IMG/VR virus record: IMGVR_UViG_2660238061_000004
Strand: one strand, 5' to 3'
From: a virus
Lineage: Duplodnaviria > Heunggongvirae > Uroviricota > Caudoviricetes
Length of the DNA: 26,702 nt
Shown: positions 12,388 to 23,868 of the stretch, one piece after another
Position numbering within the stretch: the first letter of the stretch is position 1
Layout: each line of letters begins with the position of its first letter
Notes under the pieces: generated by a model
The model's database searches: none
What the model was told of the DNA's origin: nothing
The model's input: the letters and a program-made list of their open reading frames with translations, nothing else
Program-made: the position numbers and the translations under genes

Positions 12388-12636
12388 TCAGACCGTTGAT
12401 TTCATATTATCAGAAGGTTGGGTTACCCGGTAGCCGAGACGGTTAATAAACTGCATAAAACCATTAGGAGTAAAGACCTCTTCATCATCCAGCAAAGGCC
12501 GCATAGAAACCATGCCATTGACGCGATAAATTAGATGCCTGCCCGATGAAGGAAAGCTAAACACCACGCAGCCGTCAGACCTTCTTACAATGTCATACCA
12601 GTTGTCTTCTGACGTTTGCAAAGCTGAATCACTCAC
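12388..12636 (-). CDS. small hypothetical protein downstream of the dinI-like gene
   Basis: 82-aa ORF (MSDSALQTSEDNWYDIVRRSDGCVVF...); same strand as and 117 bp after the dinI-like gene with no obvious terminator between them. Confidence 0.45.
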   Translation of the reverse strand: MSDSALQTSEDNWYDIVRRSDGCVVFSFPSSGRHLIYRVNGMVSMRPLLDDEEVFTPNGFMQFINRLGYRVTQPSDNMKSTV

Positions 12637-12753
12637 ATTTATGTTCTCCCTTCGAGCGACTAACAGACGCGATTAAAGATTGTCGGCAGCAGCATCAGAG
12701 GGTTACGCAAATTGCGGTATTCTGAAAAATGCGCGCCAGCCTTAAGCGCAATT

Positions 12754-12987
12754 CTAATAAAACCAGTCGTCAGCGCTTTCCCAGGTATCCTGGAGGATTG
12801 ATTCAATTTTCTTTTTATCGTCCTTGTCACCACCAAAAACACTTAACCCATCGGCCCCGGCACGGCGGATTGTGAGCCTGCAATTGTCATAGTGATCATT
12901 CAGGCGCTTAAGCAGTTCTTTCTCCAGTGCTGGTACTGCGCCTTTAGGAAGTTCTTTCATGCGATCAATGGTTAATTCAACTTTCAT
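12754..12987 (-). CDS. dinI: DinI-family protein
   Basis: 77 aa from the internal ATG (MKVELTIDRMKELPKGAVPALEKEL...ILQDTWESADDWFY) with the DinI C-terminal signature; GGGGG SD upstream; LexA box about 20 bp upstream. Confidence 0.8.
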   Translation of the reverse strand: MKVELTIDRMKELPKGAVPALEKELLKRLNDHYDNCRLTIRRAGADGLSVFGGDKDDKKKIESILQDTWESADDWFY

Positions 12988-13005
12988 AATGGCCCCCATT
13001 GCATG

Positions 13006-13050
13006 TACTGTGTTTTTATACAGTATACCTATGCGCGGAAATGATCAACG
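13006..13050 (-). promoter_or_regulatory. SOS box (LexA operator) overlapping the -10 of the dinI-like promoter
   Basis: TACTGTGTTTTTATACAGTA at 13006..13025 fits CTGT-N8-ACAG; on the minus strand TATACT overlaps the box and TTGATC lies about 15-16 bp upstream. Confidence 0.65.
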
Positions 13051-17831: not shown

Positions 17832-18389
17832 TCATAGCGCACCACCCAGCATCGTTGTAACCATCGCCATAATGGGCGCCACAGAATCAGGTCCGTCCAG
17901 GTAGAGCTTGGCTACGATGCTCTCGCTGATTTCCTTCATCCGTTCGTGTCTGGGGGCTTTGAGGACGACAGCCTGTATCGCCTCAGCGTCTTCTTTCACC
18001 GACCTGGCGACACGAACCGCAAAGCAGTCGTGCTTAATCACGCGATCCCGGTACGCCAGCGGCAGAACCGAAATTATTACCGGCGCCAGCTGCTCGACGT
18101 TCGCCCGGTAGGCCGGTGATTTCTCGTGGTTGTCCAGCCAGCGAAACAGCTTCACGTTCCACACATCGGCGCTGCCGGTCATGTCAATGCTGTCAAGCTC
18201 GGCCTGTTCGGCAGCCTCTTTAATCGCCAGAGCGACCGCCACGCGGCCCTCTGCCGCCGCCCAGGCGCGGACGGCAGAACAGATAGCCCGGTGATCGACC
18301 GGCTGGCCTTCAGCCTCACTGTGTTGATACTGGAATTTCAGGTGCTCTGATGGCGCTCTGTTATTCTGTTGAAAAGAAAGTGTTTGCAT
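17832..18389 (-). CDS. hypothetical early-region protein in the cII position
   Basis: 185-aa ORF between the cro-like gene and O; no family recognised. Confidence 0.4.
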   Translation of the reverse strand: MQTLSFQQNNRAPSEHLKFQYQHSEAEGQPVDHRAICSAVRAWAAAEGRVAVALAIKEAAEQAELDSIDMTGSADVWNVKLFRWLDNHEKSPAYRANVEQLAPVIISVLPLAYRDRVIKHDCFAVRVARSVKEDAEAIQAVVLKAPRHERMKEISESIVAKLYLDGPDSVAPIMAMVTTMLGGAL

Positions 18390-18400
18390 TGTCAGTGCTC

Positions 18401-18619
18401 CTACTTTGGTAATCCGTCAGTGGGATTTGGATAGAGATCAGGGCGCAGCTCGTGGGGGGTTACGCCTGTCATTTTGAAAATCGGGAAGATATAGCTTGGC
18501 GGGACGATCCCTTGGTCACGATTCTTCCAATGACTTACAGACATACTCGTCACACCAAGCGCGATGCTGAGCTTTCTGGCAGAGCCAGCGGCTTTAATTG
18601 CTTTATCGAGTGCGGACAT
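18401..18619 (-). CDS. Cro-like HTH regulator
   Basis: 72 aa; HTH SARKLSIALGVTSMSVSHWKNR; AGGAGA SD; divergent from the repressor gene. Confidence 0.7.
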   Translation of the reverse strand: MSALDKAIKAAGSARKLSIALGVTSMSVSHWKNRDQGIVPPSYIFPIFKMTGVTPHELRPDLYPNPTDGLPK

Positions 18620-18648
18620 GTGCTTCTCCTGCTTATTGATAGCAGAAG

Positions 18649-18711
18649 TAAACCACAGATTTATACTTCATGCAAACTTTGGATTTATTGCGTGCATAAA
18701 CCAAATATTTA
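18649..18711. promoter_or_regulatory. right operator region: three related operator sites about 24 bp apart, overlapping divergent promoters
   Basis: TAAACCACAGATTTA (18649), AAACTTTGGATTTA (18673), TAAACCAAATATTTA (18697); TTGCGT-16 nt-TACAAT precedes the repressor ATG by about 6 nt, implying a near-leaderless transcript. Confidence 0.5.
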
Positions 18712-18721
18712 CAATGACCAT

Positions 18722-19111
18722 ATGAGAAAAGAAGAACCCAACCTCGTTCTGGTGGAGCGCCTTACTGAGATCACTGATCGCGGCGTTACCAAAGCAGACA
18801 TGGCAAGAATAGCTGGAGTCACCCCTCAGGCCGTAAACGGCTGGTTCAAAAAAGGCGTGATTAGTAAGAAATCGGCACTGGCCATAGCCGACGCTGTTGG
18901 TATTTCTGTCGCCTGGCTACTCGGTGAAGACGTTGGGGAGAAAGACGGTCTCAAACCGGACGAACAGCGTTTGCTCGAGCTCTACCGCCAGTTACCGGAA
19001 GAAGAGCAGCAGAACATGCTCCGCATTTTTGCGCTTCGCCTGAAAGAGTTAGATGAGCTGTACGAGAAGTACATGAAGGGTCGGATTCGATCGCAAGGTG
19101 AGCAAACCTAA
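18722..19111 (+). CDS. CI-like phage repressor (XRE HTH) without a peptidase domain
   Basis: 129 aa from ATG 18722; HTH MARIAGVTPQAVNGWFKKG; short C-terminal helical region; track ORF 18452..19111 has a spurious N-terminal extension overlapping cro. Confidence 0.65.
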   Translation: MRKEEPNLVLVERLTEITDRGVTKADMARIAGVTPQAVNGWFKKGVISKKSALAIADAVGISVAWLLGEDVGEKDGLKPDEQRLLELYRQLPEEEQQNMLRIFALRLKELDELYEKYMKGRIRSQGEQT

Positions 19112-19175
19112 ACCAGTAGTATCTAATTCCATGTAATAAAAATATTTCAAGATTTAATATCTTCTGGAGGATTCG

Positions 19176-19457
19176 GTGTCTAAAGAAACAACCGTCGAAC
19201 TTATGCATCTTAATGATGTAATCGAAGCGAAAAATTTCATCGAGACCAATGCTGACGGTGTCGTAACAATCGGCACACAAAATGCCGGTTACGAAGTTTA
19301 CAATTTTGTGTTCCTGAATAGCAGCCCGATCATCGGTACGGATAATGCGGATATAGTCGTCAAGGGCATGCAGCGAACCAAAGTTGTGTCTGTGACTTTA
19401 AGCAAACAAAAGGCTTATGATTTTTATCAATCCTTAAAAAGTATGTTTGAGGAATAA
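19176..19457 (+). CDS. orphan 93-aa protein, first gene of the rex-position pair
   Basis: GTG start with GGAGGA SD; AT-rich; immediately downstream of the repressor on the same strand. Confidence 0.5.
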   Translation: MSKETTVELMHLNDVIEAKNFIETNADGVVTIGTQNAGYEVYNFVFLNSSPIIGTDNADIVVKGMQRTKVVSVTLSKQKAYDFYQSLKSMFEE

Positions 19458-19463
19458 TAATTG

Positions 19464-19985
19464 ATGGATGCGGCTCAATCATCTCTTGGTGAAGGGAAGT
19501 TATTGATTGCATATTCAGACCATAGCGGAGCTACAGTAGGCTTAGAGTTTTCATCAGTAGCTTCGAGCCAAGCAACCTTCCTTATGGGTGCTTGTAGTTT
19601 TGCCGCTTCGGATAAACAAAAACGGATTGTCACATCAGTTGCTATGGATGATACTGAAATCATTCATACGTCAACTGAAGATGGAGGTGACGACATGGAA
19701 AAGAGATTGGCTATTCTTGAGGTTGAAGTTGCCCACATCAAGAAAGATGTTGCCGAGATAAAAAACACAGTTTCAAAAGTTGATACGACAGTGAATTCAC
19801 TGGACAAAAATATGGCTGTAGTTTTGGAGAGGCTGTCTAGTATCAAAGAGTCTGTAGACAAAAAGCCCTCATCAGACACAGTGGACAAGAAAATCTCTGA
19901 TGCTAAATTGGCGATTCTCTTAGGTGTCCCTGCGATTATCGCCATTGGTACAGGGCTGTACAAAGCTTTTATGCACTTCTTTTAG
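19464..19985 (+). CDS. orphan 173-aa protein with coiled-coil and C-terminal membrane anchor, second gene of the pair
   Basis: ATG 19464 with GAGGAA SD; heptad-like middle (MEKRLAILEVEVAHIKKDVAEIKNTV...); hydrophobic C-terminus LAILLGVPAIIAIGTGLYKAF. Confidence 0.55.
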   Translation: MDAAQSSLGEGKLLIAYSDHSGATVGLEFSSVASSQATFLMGACSFAASDKQKRIVTSVAMDDTEIIHTSTEDGGDDMEKRLAILEVEVAHIKKDVAEIKNTVSKVDTTVNSLDKNMAVVLERLSSIKESVDKKPSSDTVDKKISDAKLAILLGVPAIIAIGTGLYKAFMHFF

Positions 19986-20058
19986 TCAGATTTGGTCAAT
20001 ACGCCTGAGTTATAAGGCTCTCAGCTACTAACTCTGTCGCCTTCCCCGAACCTTCTCA

Positions 20059-20085
20059 TCCCGACCACGCGTCGGGATTTTTTTT
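20059..20085 (+). terminator. rho-independent terminator ending the repressor operon
   Basis: tcccgac-cacgc-gtcggga perfect stem followed by eight T. Confidence 0.65.
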
Positions 20086-20124
20086 GCCTGCGATTCTGCA
20101 GACGTGTCACAAAACCCAGCCACA

Positions 20125-20188
20125 TAAACCTCAGATTTACAATTAACACTAACCTTAAGTTGACACATATATAAACCAGTGATTTAAT
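20125..20188 (+). promoter_or_regulatory. pL-like early promoter with operator repeats
   Basis: TTGACA (20160..20165), 17-nt spacer, TTTAAT (20183..20188); operator-like TAAACCTCAGATTTA (20125) and TAAACCAGTGATTTA (20172) match the right-operator sites. Confidence 0.55.
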
Positions 20189-20440
20189 CTAACTCACCAA
20201 GACGCACCACGAACCACCCAGGCATGGAGCCCACGAAGTAGCCGTCCGGGGCATACGAAAACCGGAATGAGGTGGTGATATTAACGCGCAGTAGGTTTGA
20301 AACGTTCCGCCAGCCTGGCGACAAGGGCAAACACAGAAGTGAGCTTCGCGGTGGTGAATTGCAGAGTTAAAACGCTCAACTGTGAAGATCAGCGTCACGG
20401 CACCACCAGCGAAGTTCACTCAGCAATAGTGGAGAACATC

Positions 20441-20647
20441 ATGGTTCATCAGCACTACGGTACACAGACAGTAAACCGCGGCGCAGTTCAGCCGGGGATG
20501 CTTGTAAAACACAAAGACTCAACCTGGACCGCATCTGCTAACGCACGCGGTCGCCTGTATCTTCACCGTGGCATCGAACGTACCTACACCAAAGATTTGC
20601 TGGTTGAGGTTTATCTAAACGGTTTAGGACATGGCCTTAGCCATTAA
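20441..20647 (+). CDS. small hypothetical protein, first gene of the early-left operon
   Basis: ATG 20441 with GGAGAA SD; 68 aa; the track ORF 20297..20647 starts at an unlikely TTG. Confidence 0.4.
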   Translation: MVHQHYGTQTVNRGAVQPGMLVKHKDSTWTASANARGRLYLHRGIERTYTKDLLVEVYLNGLGHGLSH

Positions 20648-20958: not shown

Positions 20959-23868
20959 ATGGAATTTTTCCATCTGATAAAAGCCAGTCAGAAGTCTGGC
21001 AAGAAAGATGCAGTGATTTGGTTCACTGCGAAAAGTGTAGCGCGCGCCAATCTCCAACTCGATGTGGCACTGGAAGAAGCCGGAATTGAAGAAACTGGCC
21101 GCGGTAAAGATTATGCCAAACCAATCCGCACCGATTTCCCGGTATATGACGACCTGCCGGAAGAAGGCGCAGTGGATTACACCTGGTGCAAACGCTACGA
21201 ACTGCAGAACGATGACCGCACCTGGATGCCAAAAGTCACAGCTGAAAACTCTGACGAGAAAACGGCTCAGACCGTTGATAGTCACATAACTACTGAGTCA
21301 ACGCTGCCAGAAACCGCTGGCATCACGCTGGACGAACACGACGACGACTCAACCCTCTACCCGGTAGTGCAGATGCCGTTTCGTAAGCAACTGCTTTCCC
21401 AGTTCACCGCCGACGAACTGCGCCACCACGTAACCCGCGAAGAGTACGAAGCTATCGGCGCGCTGGAGATGGACACTGATAACAGTTACGTCCAGAACTT
21501 GCTGTTAGCTGCTGAGAACTGCCCGGACGTGAAGGGTTACGACACCAAAGACCTGTGGCGCTACACCGATGCCATTCGCAAAGTGTTCAGCCAGGACAAG
21601 CGTCACGAACTCGCGCTGGTACTCCGTTTCACCAGAATGTGGGCGGCGACTGATTACATTGACCGTGGCATCCTGGCGCGTGAATGGGCTGCCGGTAATC
21701 ACATCAGTAGTGTTCAGCGTACTGATTCCGGAACCAATGCCAACGGCGGTTACGTCACTGACCGTGGACCTGATGCATACCATACCCTTGACACTCTCGA
21801 TTTAGAGATTGCATGTGCCCTTCTGCCTATGGACTTCAACCACTTCGAGATCCCGGGCAGCATTCTTCGTCGCGCTAAAGAAATCGTGACCAAAAAAGAA
21901 GAACCGTGGAAATCATGGAGCAGCATTCTGCGCAATCAACCCGGCGTTCTTGGCGTTAACCGCACAGCTATTTTTAACCTGATACGTATCGCGCCGGAAA
22001 ATATTCATCTAACTCCTGTCGCTCACCTGGAGTTTGTTAACCGGACCATGACTGCTGCGTTTAATGCTGCTGTTGAGTTATTGCCATTGCATGAAGCTGA
22101 GCCCGCAACACAGGAAATTCCCCAACCTGAAAGTAAGGAGTCTCCACGCAAACCCTTCTGCACTCACGAAGAGAACCTGCAACGCGTACGTGAAGAAGAA
22201 GCACGCCGCCGCGCAGAGGAAGCGACAGCACAACCACATAAAGCCGAACAAGAACTGGTTAAAAATGTCGGCAACGGAATATTCGATGTTACGGCTTTAC
22301 TGCAGAACTCAGCAACTCATGGCACGAAACAGGCTACGGAAACCACCAGCAATGTGCAGGTTCAAGAAACTGTCAGTGATGAAAAAAATGTTGGTAATGA
22401 AATGCAGTCAGGCGAAAGCAGTCTGGAAACTGGTGAAGAGTCACATCCCGGCCAGCAGGCCGATGTAAACCAAAATACGGAATCTGTCGCTCAAAATAGC
22501 GATTCTGTAAACCAGACTGAACCAGTTTTGGCACACGTCGAGCCAGAGGCGCAATCTGACGAACAAGCTGTTTTTTACCCCGATTACTTCGAGCCTGGGC
22601 GCTATGAAGGTCTGCCGAACGAGGTTTACCACGCTGCCAACGGCATCAGTTCCACCCAGGTAAAAGATGCGCGCGTTTCGCTGATGTACTTCAATGCGCG
22701 CCACGTTGAGAAAACCATCGTCAAAGAGCGCTCCTCAGTGCTGGACATGGGAAACCTGGTACATGCGCTGGCGTTGCAGCCAGAACAGCTCGATGAAGAA
22801 TTTAGCGTTGAACCCGTAATTCCGGAAGGTGCATTTACCACCACGGCAACGATCCGCGCGTTTATTGATGAGTACAACGCCAGCCTGCCAGCGCAACTGA
22901 GCGCAGACGATATCAAAGCTTTGCTGGATGAATACAACGCCACCCTGCCAGCGCTGGTGCCGCTGGGCGCTAGCCTGGATGAAACGGCGCAGAACTATAT
23001 GGCGCTGCCAGCTGAATTCCAACGTATCGATGCAGATCAGAAGAAGACAGCAACAGCAATGAAGGCGTGCATCAAAGAGTACAACGCCACCCTGCCAGCG
23101 CAGATTAAAACCAGCGGCAGCCGCGACGCACTACTCGAACAACTTGCGATTATCAATCCTGACCTGGTCGCGCAGGAAGCTCAGAAGCTGCAACCGCTGA
23201 AAGTCTCTGGCACGAAGGCCGATCTGATTCAGGCCGTGAAGGCAGTCAAACCAGATGCAGTGTTCGCCGACGAGCTGCTCGATGCGTGGCGCAACAACCC
23301 GGAAGGGAAAGTGCTGGTTACCCACCAGCAACTTGCCACCGCGCAGGCAATTCAGTCAGCACTGCTCTCGCACCCGACCGCAGGCATGCTGCTAACCCAC
23401 CCGAGCCGCGCCGTTGAGGTGAGCTACTTTGGCTTTGACGAGGAGACGGGACTGGAAGTTCGTGTGCGCCCTGACCTTGAGATCGACCTAGACGGCGTGC
23501 GTATCGGTGCTGACCTGAAAACCATCAGCATGTGGAATGTTAAGCAGGAAAGCCTGCGCGCCAGGCTACACCGGGAAATTATTGAACGTGATTATCACCT
23601 GAGCGCGGCTATGTACTGCGAAACCGCAGCGCTGGATCAGTTCTTCTGGATTTTCGTCAACAAAGACGAGAACTACCACTGGATCGCCATCATCGAGGCA
23701 TCCGCTGAACTACTGGAGCTGGGTATGCTCGAGTACCGCAAAGCGATGCGCAATATCGCAACCGGATTCGACACAGGTGAATGGCCAGCGCCAATCACTG
23801 CTGACTACACCGACGAACTGAACGACTTCGACCTGCGCCGCCTTGAAGCGCTGCGTACTCAGGCATAA
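20959..23868 (+). CDS. recE: exodeoxyribonuclease VIII (RecE-like)
   Basis: 969 aa from ATG 20959 (AGAGGA SD); N-terminal region matches Rac RecE as I recall it (...DFPVYDDLPEEGAVDYTWCKRYELQNDDRTW...); large acidic linker; C-terminal nuclease-like domain; followed by recT. Confidence 0.8.
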   Translation: MEFFHLIKASQKSGKKDAVIWFTAKSVARANLQLDVALEEAGIEETGRGKDYAKPIRTDFPVYDDLPEEGAVDYTWCKRYELQNDDRTWMPKVTAENSDEKTAQTVDSHITTESTLPETAGITLDEHDDDSTLYPVVQMPFRKQLLSQFTADELRHHVTREEYEAIGALEMDTDNSYVQNLLLAAENCPDVKGYDTKDLWRYTDAIRKVFSQDKRHELALVLRFTRMWAATDYIDRGILAREWAAGNHISSVQRTDSGTNANGGYVTDRGPDAYHTLDTLDLEIACALLPMDFNHFEIPGSILRRAKEIVTKKEEPWKSWSSILRNQPGVLGVNRTAIFNLIRIAPENIHLTPVAHLEFVNRTMTAAFNAAVELLPLHEAEPATQEIPQPESKESPRKPFCTHEENLQRVREEEARRRAEEATAQPHKAEQELVKNVGNGIFDVTALLQNSATHGTKQATETTSNVQVQETVSDEKNVGNEMQSGESSLETGEESHPGQQADVNQNTESVAQNSDSVNQTEPVLAHVEPEAQSDEQAVFYPDYFEPGRYEGLPNEVYHAANGISSTQVKDARVSLMYFNARHVEKTIVKERSSVLDMGNLVHALALQPEQLDEEFSVEPVIPEGAFTTTATIRAFIDEYNASLPAQLSADDIKALLDEYNATLPALVPLGASLDETAQNYMALPAEFQRIDADQKKTATAMKACIKEYNATLPAQIKTSGSRDALLEQLAIINPDLVAQEAQKLQPLKVSGTKADLIQAVKAVKPDAVFADELLDAWRNNPEGKVLVTHQQLATAQAIQSALLSHPTAGMLLTHPSRAVEVSYFGFDEETGLEVRVRPDLEIDLDGVRIGADLKTISMWNVKQESLRARLHREIIERDYHLSAAMYCETAALDQFFWIFVNKDENYHWIAIIEASAELLELGMLEYRKAMRNIATGFDTGEWPAPITADYTDELNDFDLRRLEALRTQA

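Follow-up and report, generated by a model that had tools for sequence, protein, structure and literature searches.

Three described prophage systems, architectural relatives of the immunity region considered here, supply experimental precedent. In the Rac prophage, RacR footprints three 6-n3-6 inverted repeats in the racR/ydaS intergenic region (PMC9638921). In CP-933P, PaaR2 and YdaS both footprint OR and regulate a PL promoter bearing OL1-3, and the paaR2 mRNA has been established experimentally to be leaderless (PMC8630535). The third system is that of the Salmonella phages Gifsy-1 and Gifsy-3; their repressors are not cleaved and are stripped off the DNA by LexA-controlled antirepressors encoded after dinI (Lemire et al. 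2011, PMC3121763). A parA gene downstream of the repressor gene has been described for both gfoR and gfhR of Salmonella.

The window analysed here is the whole 26,702-nucleotide stretch of phage DNA. With its head, lysis and terminase genes the element appears to be an intact prophage, whereas Rac and CP-933P are cryptic. We conclude, with a probability of roughly 0.85, that five 15-bp sites predicted from the DNA serve as operators in the immunity switch of an E. coli prophage of lambdoid, Gifsy-1/Rac-like type. The repeated sites are very probably operators for both the repressor and Cro, arranged as in lambda to give a switch of the textbook type. The features are listed in Table 1, where operators are named after their lambda equivalents.

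Table 1. Coordinates of predicted operators, promoters and genes of the immunity region and of the SOS-linked operon
Feature	Coordinates	Strand	Sequence or elements	Remarks
dinI homologue + 82-aa ORF	12388-12987	-		dinI 12987-12754, then ORF 12636-12388
LexA box	13006-13025	-	TACTGTATAAAAACACAGTA	overlaps -10 upstream of dinI homologue
CII-like (YdaT family) regulator gene	17832-18389	-		185 aa; PF06254 1.5e-17; phrog_163 CII-like
cro-equivalent gene	18401-18619	-		72 aa; YdaS family, PF15943 1.4e-13
Inferred PR for cro-ydaT-O	18647-18675	-	-35 TTGCAT (18675-18670), 17-bp spacer, extended -10 TGgTTTACT	
OR1-equivalent operator	18649-18663		TAAACCACAGATTTA	exact consensus; 25.0 bits
OR2-equivalent weak operator	18673-18687		CAAACTTTGGATTTA	9.4 bits, rank 12
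Inferred PRM-like promoter	18688-18715	+	weak -35 TTGCGT (18688-18693), 16-bp spacer, -10 TACAAT (18710-18715)	
OR3-equivalent operator	18697-18711		TAAACCAAATATTTA	25.0 bits; conserved in relatives
Repressor gene	18722-19111	+		129 aa; 5-helix HTH_3 domain + helical C-terminal domain
Two cargo genes	19176-19985	+		93 aa and 174 aa, no assigned function; slot of lambda rexAB; co-oriented with repressor
Intrinsic terminator	20058-20085	+		closes repressor operon; just upstream of OL
OL3-equivalent operator	20125-20139		TAAACCTCAGATTTA	22.7 bits; conserved in relatives; upstream of PL -35
Doubtful OL2 candidate	20149-20163		CTAACCTTAAGTTGA	5/12 mismatches; -3.0 bits, rank 356; overlaps PL -35
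PL-equivalent promoter	20160-20188	+	-35 TTGACA, 17-bp spacer, extended -10 TGaTTTAAT	
OL1-equivalent operator	20172-20186		TAAACCAGTGATTTA	22.2 bits; identical in all homoimmune relatives

The sites follow the 6-N3-6 pattern TAAACC-N3-GATTTA. The earlier note had given the motif an N4 spacer, one base longer, and that formula fails: its best matches carry three mismatches and are all frame-shifted. Matching with N3 at the 12 fixed positions nevertheless recovered each site at the position the note had assigned it (18649, 18673, 18697, 20125 and 20172), with spacings of 24 and 24 bp at the right and 47 bp at the left. OR1, OL3 and OL1 match exactly, OR3 has a single mismatch and OR2 has two, giving four strong sites and one weak site in the middle of the right operator. 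We propose TAAA(C/T)C as the repressor half-site and predict TAAA(C/T)C-N3-G/TATTTA as the operator of this immunity group.

Scored with a weight matrix, the four strong sites reach 22-25 bits, and the next match in the window reaches 14.6 bits. At up to one mismatch, the whole window holds four matches against 0.06 expected for a motif that was picked after the fact. All of them are confined to the two regulatory intergenic regions. An unbiased scan for repeat families found four copies at up to one mismatch to be unexceptional, with shuffled sequences reaching four to five. We replaced this non-discriminating copy-number test by a statistic combining exact copies and proximity, and found three exact copies, including a pair within 60 bp, in only 1 of 300 shuffles. 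The near-matches at 20585, 18834, 3143 and 16568 lie inside coding regions, score at most 15 bits and are taken as chance, and the 41.9-kb NCTC11023 locus contains no additional site at up to one mismatch.

The middle sites are a different matter. The score of OR2 falls in the range of chance matches, so that its support comes mainly from its exact 24-bp register; its sequence varies among relatives, yet one good half-site is always retained. A weaker candidate had also been placed between the OL sites, and this one is by sequence indistinguishable from background. What speaks for it is its register and a better counterpart in PHB10, TAATCCTTTGATTGA; the middle site is thus doubtful and a true OL triplet unproven.

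The right-hand triplet occupies the 102-bp gap between the divergent cro and repressor genes, with the YdaT/CII gene and the replication gene O behind cro. OR1 overlaps the spacer and the first four nucleotides of the inferred PR -10 hexamer (18652-18647; hexamer-scan score 10), and both PR hexamers are invariant in the alignment of relatives (A1). OR2 shares three nucleotides with the PR -35 and directly adjoins the -35 of the predicted repressor promoter; OR3 overlaps the spacer and the first two nucleotides of the -10 of the latter. The left-hand pair brackets PL, which in our own hexamer scan is the best sigma-70 match of the whole window, is invariant in alignment A2 and points into kil, ydaE, recE and recT. 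OL1 sits in the PL spacer and -10, at the same position as OR1 in PR. The promoter-like hexamers overlapped by the sites are conserved in relatives. That the sites overlap promoter elements, as the earlier note had it, holds under the relaxed hexamer rules on which these promoter assignments rest; a stricter generic scan, which applies a rule to position 2 of the -10 that they fail, called none of PR, PRM and PL. The PL leader RNA matches no Rfam family and does not resemble the HK022 put region, and a literature search on 'KilS' found nothing.

The repressor ATG lies six nucleotides past the -10 and is not preceded by a Shine-Dalgarno sequence, which makes a leaderless repressor mRNA probable. 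A -10-like hexamer stands six nucleotides ahead of the repressor ATG in eight of nine relatives. The RefSeq annotation, made by the PGAP pipeline, begins the gene at GTG 18692 in the OR3 region, which is probably an over-extension.

Comparison with lambda supports the OR/OL architecture proposed in the note, through the divergent genes, the OR sites 24 bp apart and the second cluster at PL. In both phages, three sites at 24-bp spacing lie over PR and the repressor promoter (both predicted here) between divergent repressor and cro genes, and the middle site is centred about 42 bp upstream of a leaderless repressor start (here probably so; the distance from the centre of OR2 to the ATG is 42 bp). 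In both, moreover, the second cluster is found at PL behind an accessory-gene slot, held by rexAB in lambda, and OL and OR are about 1.5 kb apart. The order of terminator and then PL behind the repressor operon fits a lambdoid immunity region. The differences are nevertheless clear. The lambda operators are 17 bp long rather than 15 bp, and they rank OR1>OR2>OR3, whereas the sequences here imply a strong-weak-strong series. The Cro here belongs to the all-helical YdaS type and CII to the YdaT type, an N gene is absent behind PL, and the 129-aa repressor lacks an S24 autocleavage domain.

A cleavable repressor of the lambda CI or LexA type, marked by Ala-Gly cleavage and a Ser/Lys dyad in a C-terminal Peptidase_S24 domain, was rejected on the last of these grounds: the only Pfam matches are to helix-turn-helix families, with none to Peptidase_S24, and the structural model ends in two C-terminal helices. 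The N-terminal domain of the model superposes on the DNA-binding domains of the P22 c2 and 434 repressors with an rmsd of about 2 Å over 60-64 residues. Those repressors bind short pseudo-palindromic operators as dimers, as is predicted here, but they share only 22-25% sequence identity with this protein and carry an S24 peptidase-type domain in place of the two C-terminal helices. A search of solved structures with the repressor sequence returned only spurious polyubiquitin matches. The cro-equivalent protein is similar to the Cro of PDB entry 3bd1; the YdaT-like protein gave no match in the solved-structure search. For the two cargo proteins, PADLOC produced only weak coiled-coil-type matches. 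A cluster look-up yielded no informative names.

With Rac and CP-933P the locus shares a YdaS-family Cro and a YdaT-family CII downstream of PR, and an intergenic region, about 100 bp long, that contains three inverted repeats; those of Rac also have the 6-n3-6 geometry (PMC9638921, PMC8630535). CP-933P has in addition a PL with OL1-3 and a leaderless repressor gene, to which the predicted PL with its OL sites and the probably leaderless repressor gene correspond here. The operator sequences differ, that of RacR being TTAGGC-n3-GCCTAA and the CP-933P repeats being of the GTTTAGTAA type. The element was rejected as a Rac orthologue, since it has no DNA similarity to K-12 Rac and its proteins resemble those of Rac only at the level of the helix-turn-helix. 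Its repressor was likewise rejected as an orthologue of RacR or PaaR2: the RacR match extends over just 27 aa of the helix-turn-helix (E = 7e-6), and the protein has no solved-structure relative by sequence.

The likeness to Gifsy-1 and Gifsy-3 (repressors GfoR/GfhR, antirepressors GfoA/GfhA; PMC3121763) includes a short repressor that would not be cleaved and a LexA box ahead of dinI and a small ORF, all lying away from the immunity region. It extends to a repressor C-terminal half that is conserved across heteroimmune members, which fits the antirepressor cross-reactivity reported there. The left operon also contains recE/recT in both cases; the two differ in cargo genes and in host, which here is E. 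coli. The repressor is 90-91% identical to those of Salmonella prophages with parA downstream. The same operators occur in the parA-bearing Salmonella prophage with the 90%-identical repressor, a very common, Gifsy-1-like element listed in over 3000 assembly-index blocks. Its context, namely the downstream parA and a nearby gene for a GogA-like protease, suggests that this homologue may be GfoR.

The strongest evidence for the operator reading is comparative, drawn from aligned sequences. OR1, OR3, OL3 and OL1 are kept in AR_0118 (hicAB cargo), strain 210205630 (DUF6932 cargo), PHB10 and the Salmonella prophage with parA cargo, and OR1 is unchanged or has one central change among the homoimmune relatives. 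The cargo slot behind the repressor thus holds different genes in different relatives, and those with the same recognition helices retain the motif across unrelated cargo. The heteroimmune relatives, mEp237, SEN34/SW-37 and Klebsiella phages, have another helix-turn-helix and another 15-bp motif at the same offsets; the mEp237 homologue is 73% identical, and its annotation points to similarity with a regulator from S. Typhimurium strain 14028S. Among the nine relatives the motif takes the forms TAAACC..GATTTA, TAAGCC..GRCTTA, TAAAGC..ATTTA and TAAACA..TGTTTA, with an intermediate form in Kp4865-4, and these variants group by helix-turn-helix sequence. Each motif stands at -73 and -25 from its repressor ATG and appears twice more, roughly 47 bp apart, at the PL of the same phage. 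The helix-turn-helix regions of the repressor and Cro change in step with it, while the C-terminal half of the repressor is nearly invariant. The comparison with heteroimmune relatives that the earlier note had called for therefore speaks for its proposal that the motif would define immunity specificity.

What has been observed is the presence of the sites, their placement among genes and promoter-like hexamers, their retention in relatives and their covariation with the helix-turn-helix sequences; from this we infer the following scheme of binding, promoter activity, transcription starts, activation and antirepression. A dimer of the 129-aa repressor, through its P22 c2/434-like DNA-binding domain, would occupy each 15-bp pseudo-palindrome. 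Bound at OR1 (and OR2), it would block PR and with it the cro-CII-O operon; bound at OL1 (and OL3), it would block PL and the kil-ydaE-recE-recT operon. Occupation of OR3 would limit its own leaderless transcript, and OR2, placed like its lambda namesake, would stimulate the repressor promoter. The YdaS-type Cro would probably act on the same sites for the opposite decision.

Because the repressor lacks an autocleavage domain, induction is most likely to proceed through a small antirepressor. The LexA box, which is the sole exact CTGT-N8-ACAG in the window, may be the SOS input to the switch. The 82-aa ORF that follows dinI corresponds to gfoA in the dinI-gfoA pair of the Gifsy phages and on this analogy is a candidate antirepressor gene; all 12 phage records matching its product lie among the 23 that match the repressor. 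The LexA-controlled dinI operon (12388-13025) would then express a small antirepressor, as in the Salmonella Gifsy phages.

One element of this scheme sits uneasily with the lambda model. OR3 is as near to the consensus as OR1, which does not fit the lambda order of affinities and makes positive autoregulation uncertain. The outer sites are separated by 48 bp at OR and by 47 bp at OL, with a degenerate site in the middle, and this layout is conserved across several heteroimmune operator types. It is possible, though on balance we think it unlikely, that the strong-weak-strong series marks a non-lambda logic in which PR and the repressor's own promoter are occupied at similar affinity. Were this so, negative autoregulation would be tight and positive autoregulation slight or absent, and the repressor might bridge the outer sites, or OL and OR across 1.5 kb, by means of its invariant helical C-terminal domain. 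The same domain would then be the target of cross-reacting antirepressors.

We considered whether only the YdaS-type Cro or the YdaT/CII-like protein might bind the sites, with the 129-aa protein recognising something else. The Cro helix-turn-helix does covary with the motif, and CP-933P has two overlapping repeat types, of which the PaaR2 and YdaS sequences are left unresolved in that work (PMC8630535). The repressor helix-turn-helix, however, covaries with the motif too. A prophage repressor has to act on PR as well as on PL, and only this motif occurs at the two promoters: no other repeated motif is common to OR and OL, and a second direct repeat in OR, TTATTGATAGCAGAA / TTATTGCGTGCATAA (TTATTG...), was dropped as it is not conserved in relatives. 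Moreover, the YdaT target of CP-933P given in PMC9986795, TTGATT-N6-AATCAA, is unlike the pattern here. We therefore regard this explanation as improbable and retain the assignment of the sites to the repressor together with Cro.

Still less probable is a duplicated promoter sequence, in which PR and PL share the ancestry of their spacer and -10, and the remaining copies are fortuitous AT-rich matches that bind no protein. Such an origin would account for the equal placement of OR1 and OL1 in promoters sharing the extended -10 TGnTTTA, and a four-copy family at up to one mismatch can occur by chance in a window of this size. It does not account for OR3 and OL3, which match the consensus equally well without being promoter-equivalent in position, nor for the pseudo-palindromic form of the sites. 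OR1 and OL1 are, besides, opposite relative to transcription, as for a symmetric binding site, and all copies co-change in heteroimmune relatives in step with the repressor and Cro helices. Binding by a host nucleoid or architectural protein (IHF, Fis or H-NS) can be set aside as the least probable of all: the AT-rich motif does lie in AT-rich intergenic DNA, against a balanced composition of the window overall, but it differs between heteroimmune relatives in the same host species, tracks the phage helices, and forms a fixed 15-bp dyad with an invariant TAAA...TTTA frame unlike the IHF or Fis consensus.

Overall, the operator reading leaves our understanding of lambdoid switches unchanged, describing the ordinary switch of one immunity type. 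It departs from lambda in three respects: there is no autocleavage domain in the repressor, induction through an antirepressor is suggested by the LexA-boxed operon of dinI plus a small ORF, and the operators are laid out strong-weak-strong. What it provides is a concrete predicted operator sequence for one Gifsy/Rac-like immunity group, which takes in E. coli prophages, PHB10 and a very common Salmonella prophage. The heteroimmune set constitutes a natural series in which helix-turn-helix changes are paired with operator changes, and this series could help both in predicting which prophages are homoimmune and in studying recognition by this repressor family.

The element repeated at the two immunity loci of the window is a 15-mer, TAAACC-N3-GATTTA. 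The earlier note had described operator triplets of the form TAAACC-N4-GATTTA at the divergent immunity promoters and at the early-left promoter; a search with the N4 spacer gives just frame-shifted matches with three mismatches. Once the spacer is corrected the observation is real, and the site coordinates and the 24-bp and 47-bp spacings are confirmed in the window. The third left-operator site is unsupported: the weaker candidate between the left sites scores at background level (see table). On a weight matrix derived from homoimmune sites (those of relatives sharing the operator motif), the four strong sites in the window score 22–25 bits and the following match 14.6 bits; the middle right-operator site at 18673 scores 9.4 bits and ranks 12th.

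We consider it very likely (probability about 0.85), from the sequence comparisons described here, that the five sites are the operators of an immunity switch. Repressor dimers would bind the 15-bp dyads, shutting PR, the inferred promoter of the cro operon, through 18649 with or without 18673, and PL, that of the kil–ydaE–recE–recT operon, through 20172 and 20125; they would autoregulate the leaderless repressor promoter (PRM-like) through 18697, and Cro would probably bind the same sites. The lambda OR/OL reading in the earlier note has strong comparative support, and the window switch would work as that of lambda does. It differs in its strong–weak–strong site layout, a real difference that is kept in 9/9 relatives. 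The exact operator sequence of this immunity group was not found in the literature searched; the architecture is already well known, and close protein homologues are abundant and partly characterised.

Probable operators, inferred promoters and associated features, with coordinates in the window unless stated (L002, L003 and L008 are loci of other relatives; promoters from relaxed hexamer scoring)
Feature	Coordinates	Strand	Sequence or remark
Right-operator site 1	18649-18663		TAAACCACAGATTTA; 0 mismatches to N3 motif
Right-operator middle site	18673-18687		CAAACTTTGGATTTA; 2 mismatches
Right-operator site 3	18697-18711		TAAACCAAATATTTA; 1 mismatch
Left-operator site	20125-20139		TAAACCTCAGATTTA; 0 mismatches
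Left-operator site	20172-20186		TAAACCAGTGATTTA; 0 mismatches
Proposed middle left-operator site	20149		CTAACCTTAAGTTGA; -3.0 bits, rank 356
PL	20160-20188	+	TTGACA-17-TGaTTTAAT; best sigma-70 match of whole window
PR, for cro	18675-18647	-	TTGCAT-17-TGgTTTACT
PRM-like repressor promoter	18688-18715	+	TTGCGT-16-TACAAT
Intrinsic terminator	20058-20085		between two small genes and left-hand sites
Repressor-to-OL cargo slot	19176-19985; L002 4746-6573; L003 4850-6252; L008 4557-5666	+ (window)	
LexA box	13025-13006	-	TACTGTATAAAAACACAGTA; perfect, sole perfect one in window
dinI homologue	12987-12754	-	
82-aa ORF	12636-12388	-	after dinI homologue
Conserved leader	about 20206-20340	+	directly downstream of PL

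With at most one mismatch the N3 motif occurs four times in the window against 0.06 expected, all four inside two intergenic stretches, and the 41.9-kb homologous locus of NCTC11023 holds no further such site. Because the motif was picked after looking, unbiased tests were also run. A 15-mer family with four copies at ≤1 mismatch is not unusual within 26.7 kb, shuffles giving 4–5; three exact copies including a pair ≤60 bp apart arose in 1 of 300 shuffles, and one further family of this sort exists in the window, an in-frame coding repeat in recE. This threefold repeat (22875–23098, plus strand; copies at 22875, 22935 and 23082) encodes the peptide motif (D/K)EYNA(S/T)LPA, which falls in the linker of the RecE-like protein. 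Apart from it and the immunity sites, no window family has a 6-N3-6 pattern in at least three exact copies.

This E. coli prophage is 99.9% identical to the NCTC11023 locus adjoining kch. Of 5426 complete E. coli genomes, 13 contain the whole immunity region. On the minus strand, left of the right-hand triplet, lie genes for a 72-aa Cro-like protein (YdaS family, PF15943, 1.4e-13) resembling the Cro protein of PDB entry 3bd1, a 185-aa YdaT/CII-like protein and a lambda-O-type replication protein. To the right, on the plus strand, is the gene for a 129-aa HTH_3 protein, the repressor, followed by two small genes, the terminator, the left-hand sites, kil, ydaE, recE, recT and int. In the repressor model (pLDDT 85) a domain of five helices can be superposed, at ~2 Å rmsd, on the DNA-binding domains of the P22 c2 and 434 repressors; a short helix and then one of 35 residues follow. 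In the window recE is one continuous 969-aa ORF (20959–23868, plus strand). Its NCTC11023 counterpart (locus L001, 22580–25489) carries a pair of CDS annotations, one for a RecE family exonuclease and one for a PD-(D/E)XK protein; this implies that the two prophages, 99.9% identical otherwise, differ here by a frameshift or a stop. Ten consecutive Ns, masked or unknown bases, occupy 109–118 near the left end.

None of the PR, PL and PRM-like promoters was called by a generic promoter scan; they were assigned by relaxed hexamer scoring, and every named hexamer stays unchanged when four homoimmune relatives are aligned. Site 20172 covers the spacer and first four −10 bases of PL, and 18649 is placed identically in PR in the opposite orientation, as expected of a dyad site. 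The PRM-like −10 ends 6 nt upstream of the repressor ATG at 18722 and a Shine–Dalgarno sequence is absent, implying a leaderless mRNA. With +1 at 18722 the site centres fall at −66, −42 and −18, presumably matching lambda OR1–OR3 relative to PRM. The RefSeq (PGAP) start, GTG 18692, lies inside the third operator and is probably an over-extension; RefSeq and other annotations start the gene at least 10 codons upstream of ATG 18722 (18692–18721), giving products of 137–161 aa. The onset of protein conservation and the −10-N6-ATG arrangement, found in 8/9 relatives, suggest ATG 18722 as the true, leaderless start. A leaderless transcript has been demonstrated experimentally for paaR2 of CP-933P (PMC8630535).

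The homoimmune set comprised E. coli AR_0118, E. coli 210205630, phage PHB10 (repressor 97% identical) and a Salmonella prophage (90%); the assembly index lists the repressor of the latter in >3000 blocks. Every homoimmune relative examined keeps the outer sites at the right and the left locus, and in PHB10 a middle left-operator site, TAATCCTTTGATTGA, is credible as well. The genes between repressor and PL are unrelated among them: hicAB, DUF6932, parA or the window's two ORFs. This slot is a cargo hot spot, with rexAB as its lambda counterpart; relatives with identical operators carry a helix-turn-helix gene with hicAB, a DUF6932 pair or parA, and the window a 93-aa ORF and a 174-aa ORF with a coiled coil and hydrophobic C-terminus, for which PADLOC gave weak matches at most.

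Heteroimmune phages, with repressors of the same family at 62–80% identity, carry different motifs at the same repressor-ATG offsets, −73 and −25: TAAGCC..GRCTTA in SEN34/SW-37, TAAAGC..ATTTA in mEp237 and Klebsiella phage ST846phi9.2, and TAAACA..TGTTTA in Klebsiella phage ST974phi18.2. Each recurs as a pair ~47 bp apart directly upstream of the phage's own left operon. The repressor helix-turn-helix varies with the motif (GVTPQAVNGWFKKG in the window, ITPQSVNGWFKKGA in SEN34/SW-37, VSKQAVSSWFKTGR in mEp237, VSSQSVNNWFVRGA in ST974phi18.2), as do the Cro proteins, and the repressor C-terminal halves are almost invariant. Such covariation is expected of operators that set immunity specificity, as had been claimed for these sites, and is hard to square with the sites being mere promoter homology, host-factor sites or chance matches.

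Rac and CP-933P are similar in architecture: in footprints RacR covers three repeats of 6-n3-6 form, TTAGGC-n3-GCCTAA (PMC9638921), and CP-933P has OR1-3, OL1-3 and PL (PMC8630535). We rejected a RacR orthologue, the match being a 27-aa helix-turn-helix alone with no DNA similarity. A lambda-CI-type cleavable repressor was likewise rejected; the 129-aa repressor has no S24 peptidase domain, so that autocleavage is an unlikely route of induction. The Gifsy-1/-3 immunity class is closest in parts. In the Gifsy prophages, non-cleavable repressors are removed from DNA by small antirepressors whose genes follow dinI, and these cross-react between the heteroimmune GfoR and GfhR (PMC3121763); the same arrangement of LexA box, dinI homologue and small ORF occurs in the window, where the box overlaps the −10 upstream of the dinI homologue operon. 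The 82-aa protein matches 12 phage records, all among the 23 carrying this repressor family, and by analogy with the Gifsy phages its ORF is likely to be an SOS-controlled antirepressor. The putatively LexA-controlled operon would supply it to remove the non-cleavable repressor, and the reported cross-reactivity would fit the invariant C-terminal half.

The leader downstream of PL, an apparently structured RNA, is 75–96% identical in 10/10 relatives, irrespective of their immunity type and of the genes that follow; SfV, SfII, ST64B, phiNP and other phages also share its 5′ half. Its consensus fold, as predicted by RNAalifold, is an outer helix around a hairpin with loop GGCATACGAA; compensatory changes occur at six pairs, with 99% of cells paired, and slid-partner controls collapse. 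No Rfam family matches it, and it resembles neither the HK022 put region nor Rac kilS in sequence. Since no N-like gene follows PL, the leader may be a cis-acting antitermination or processing/processivity element; it may be of more interest than the operators.
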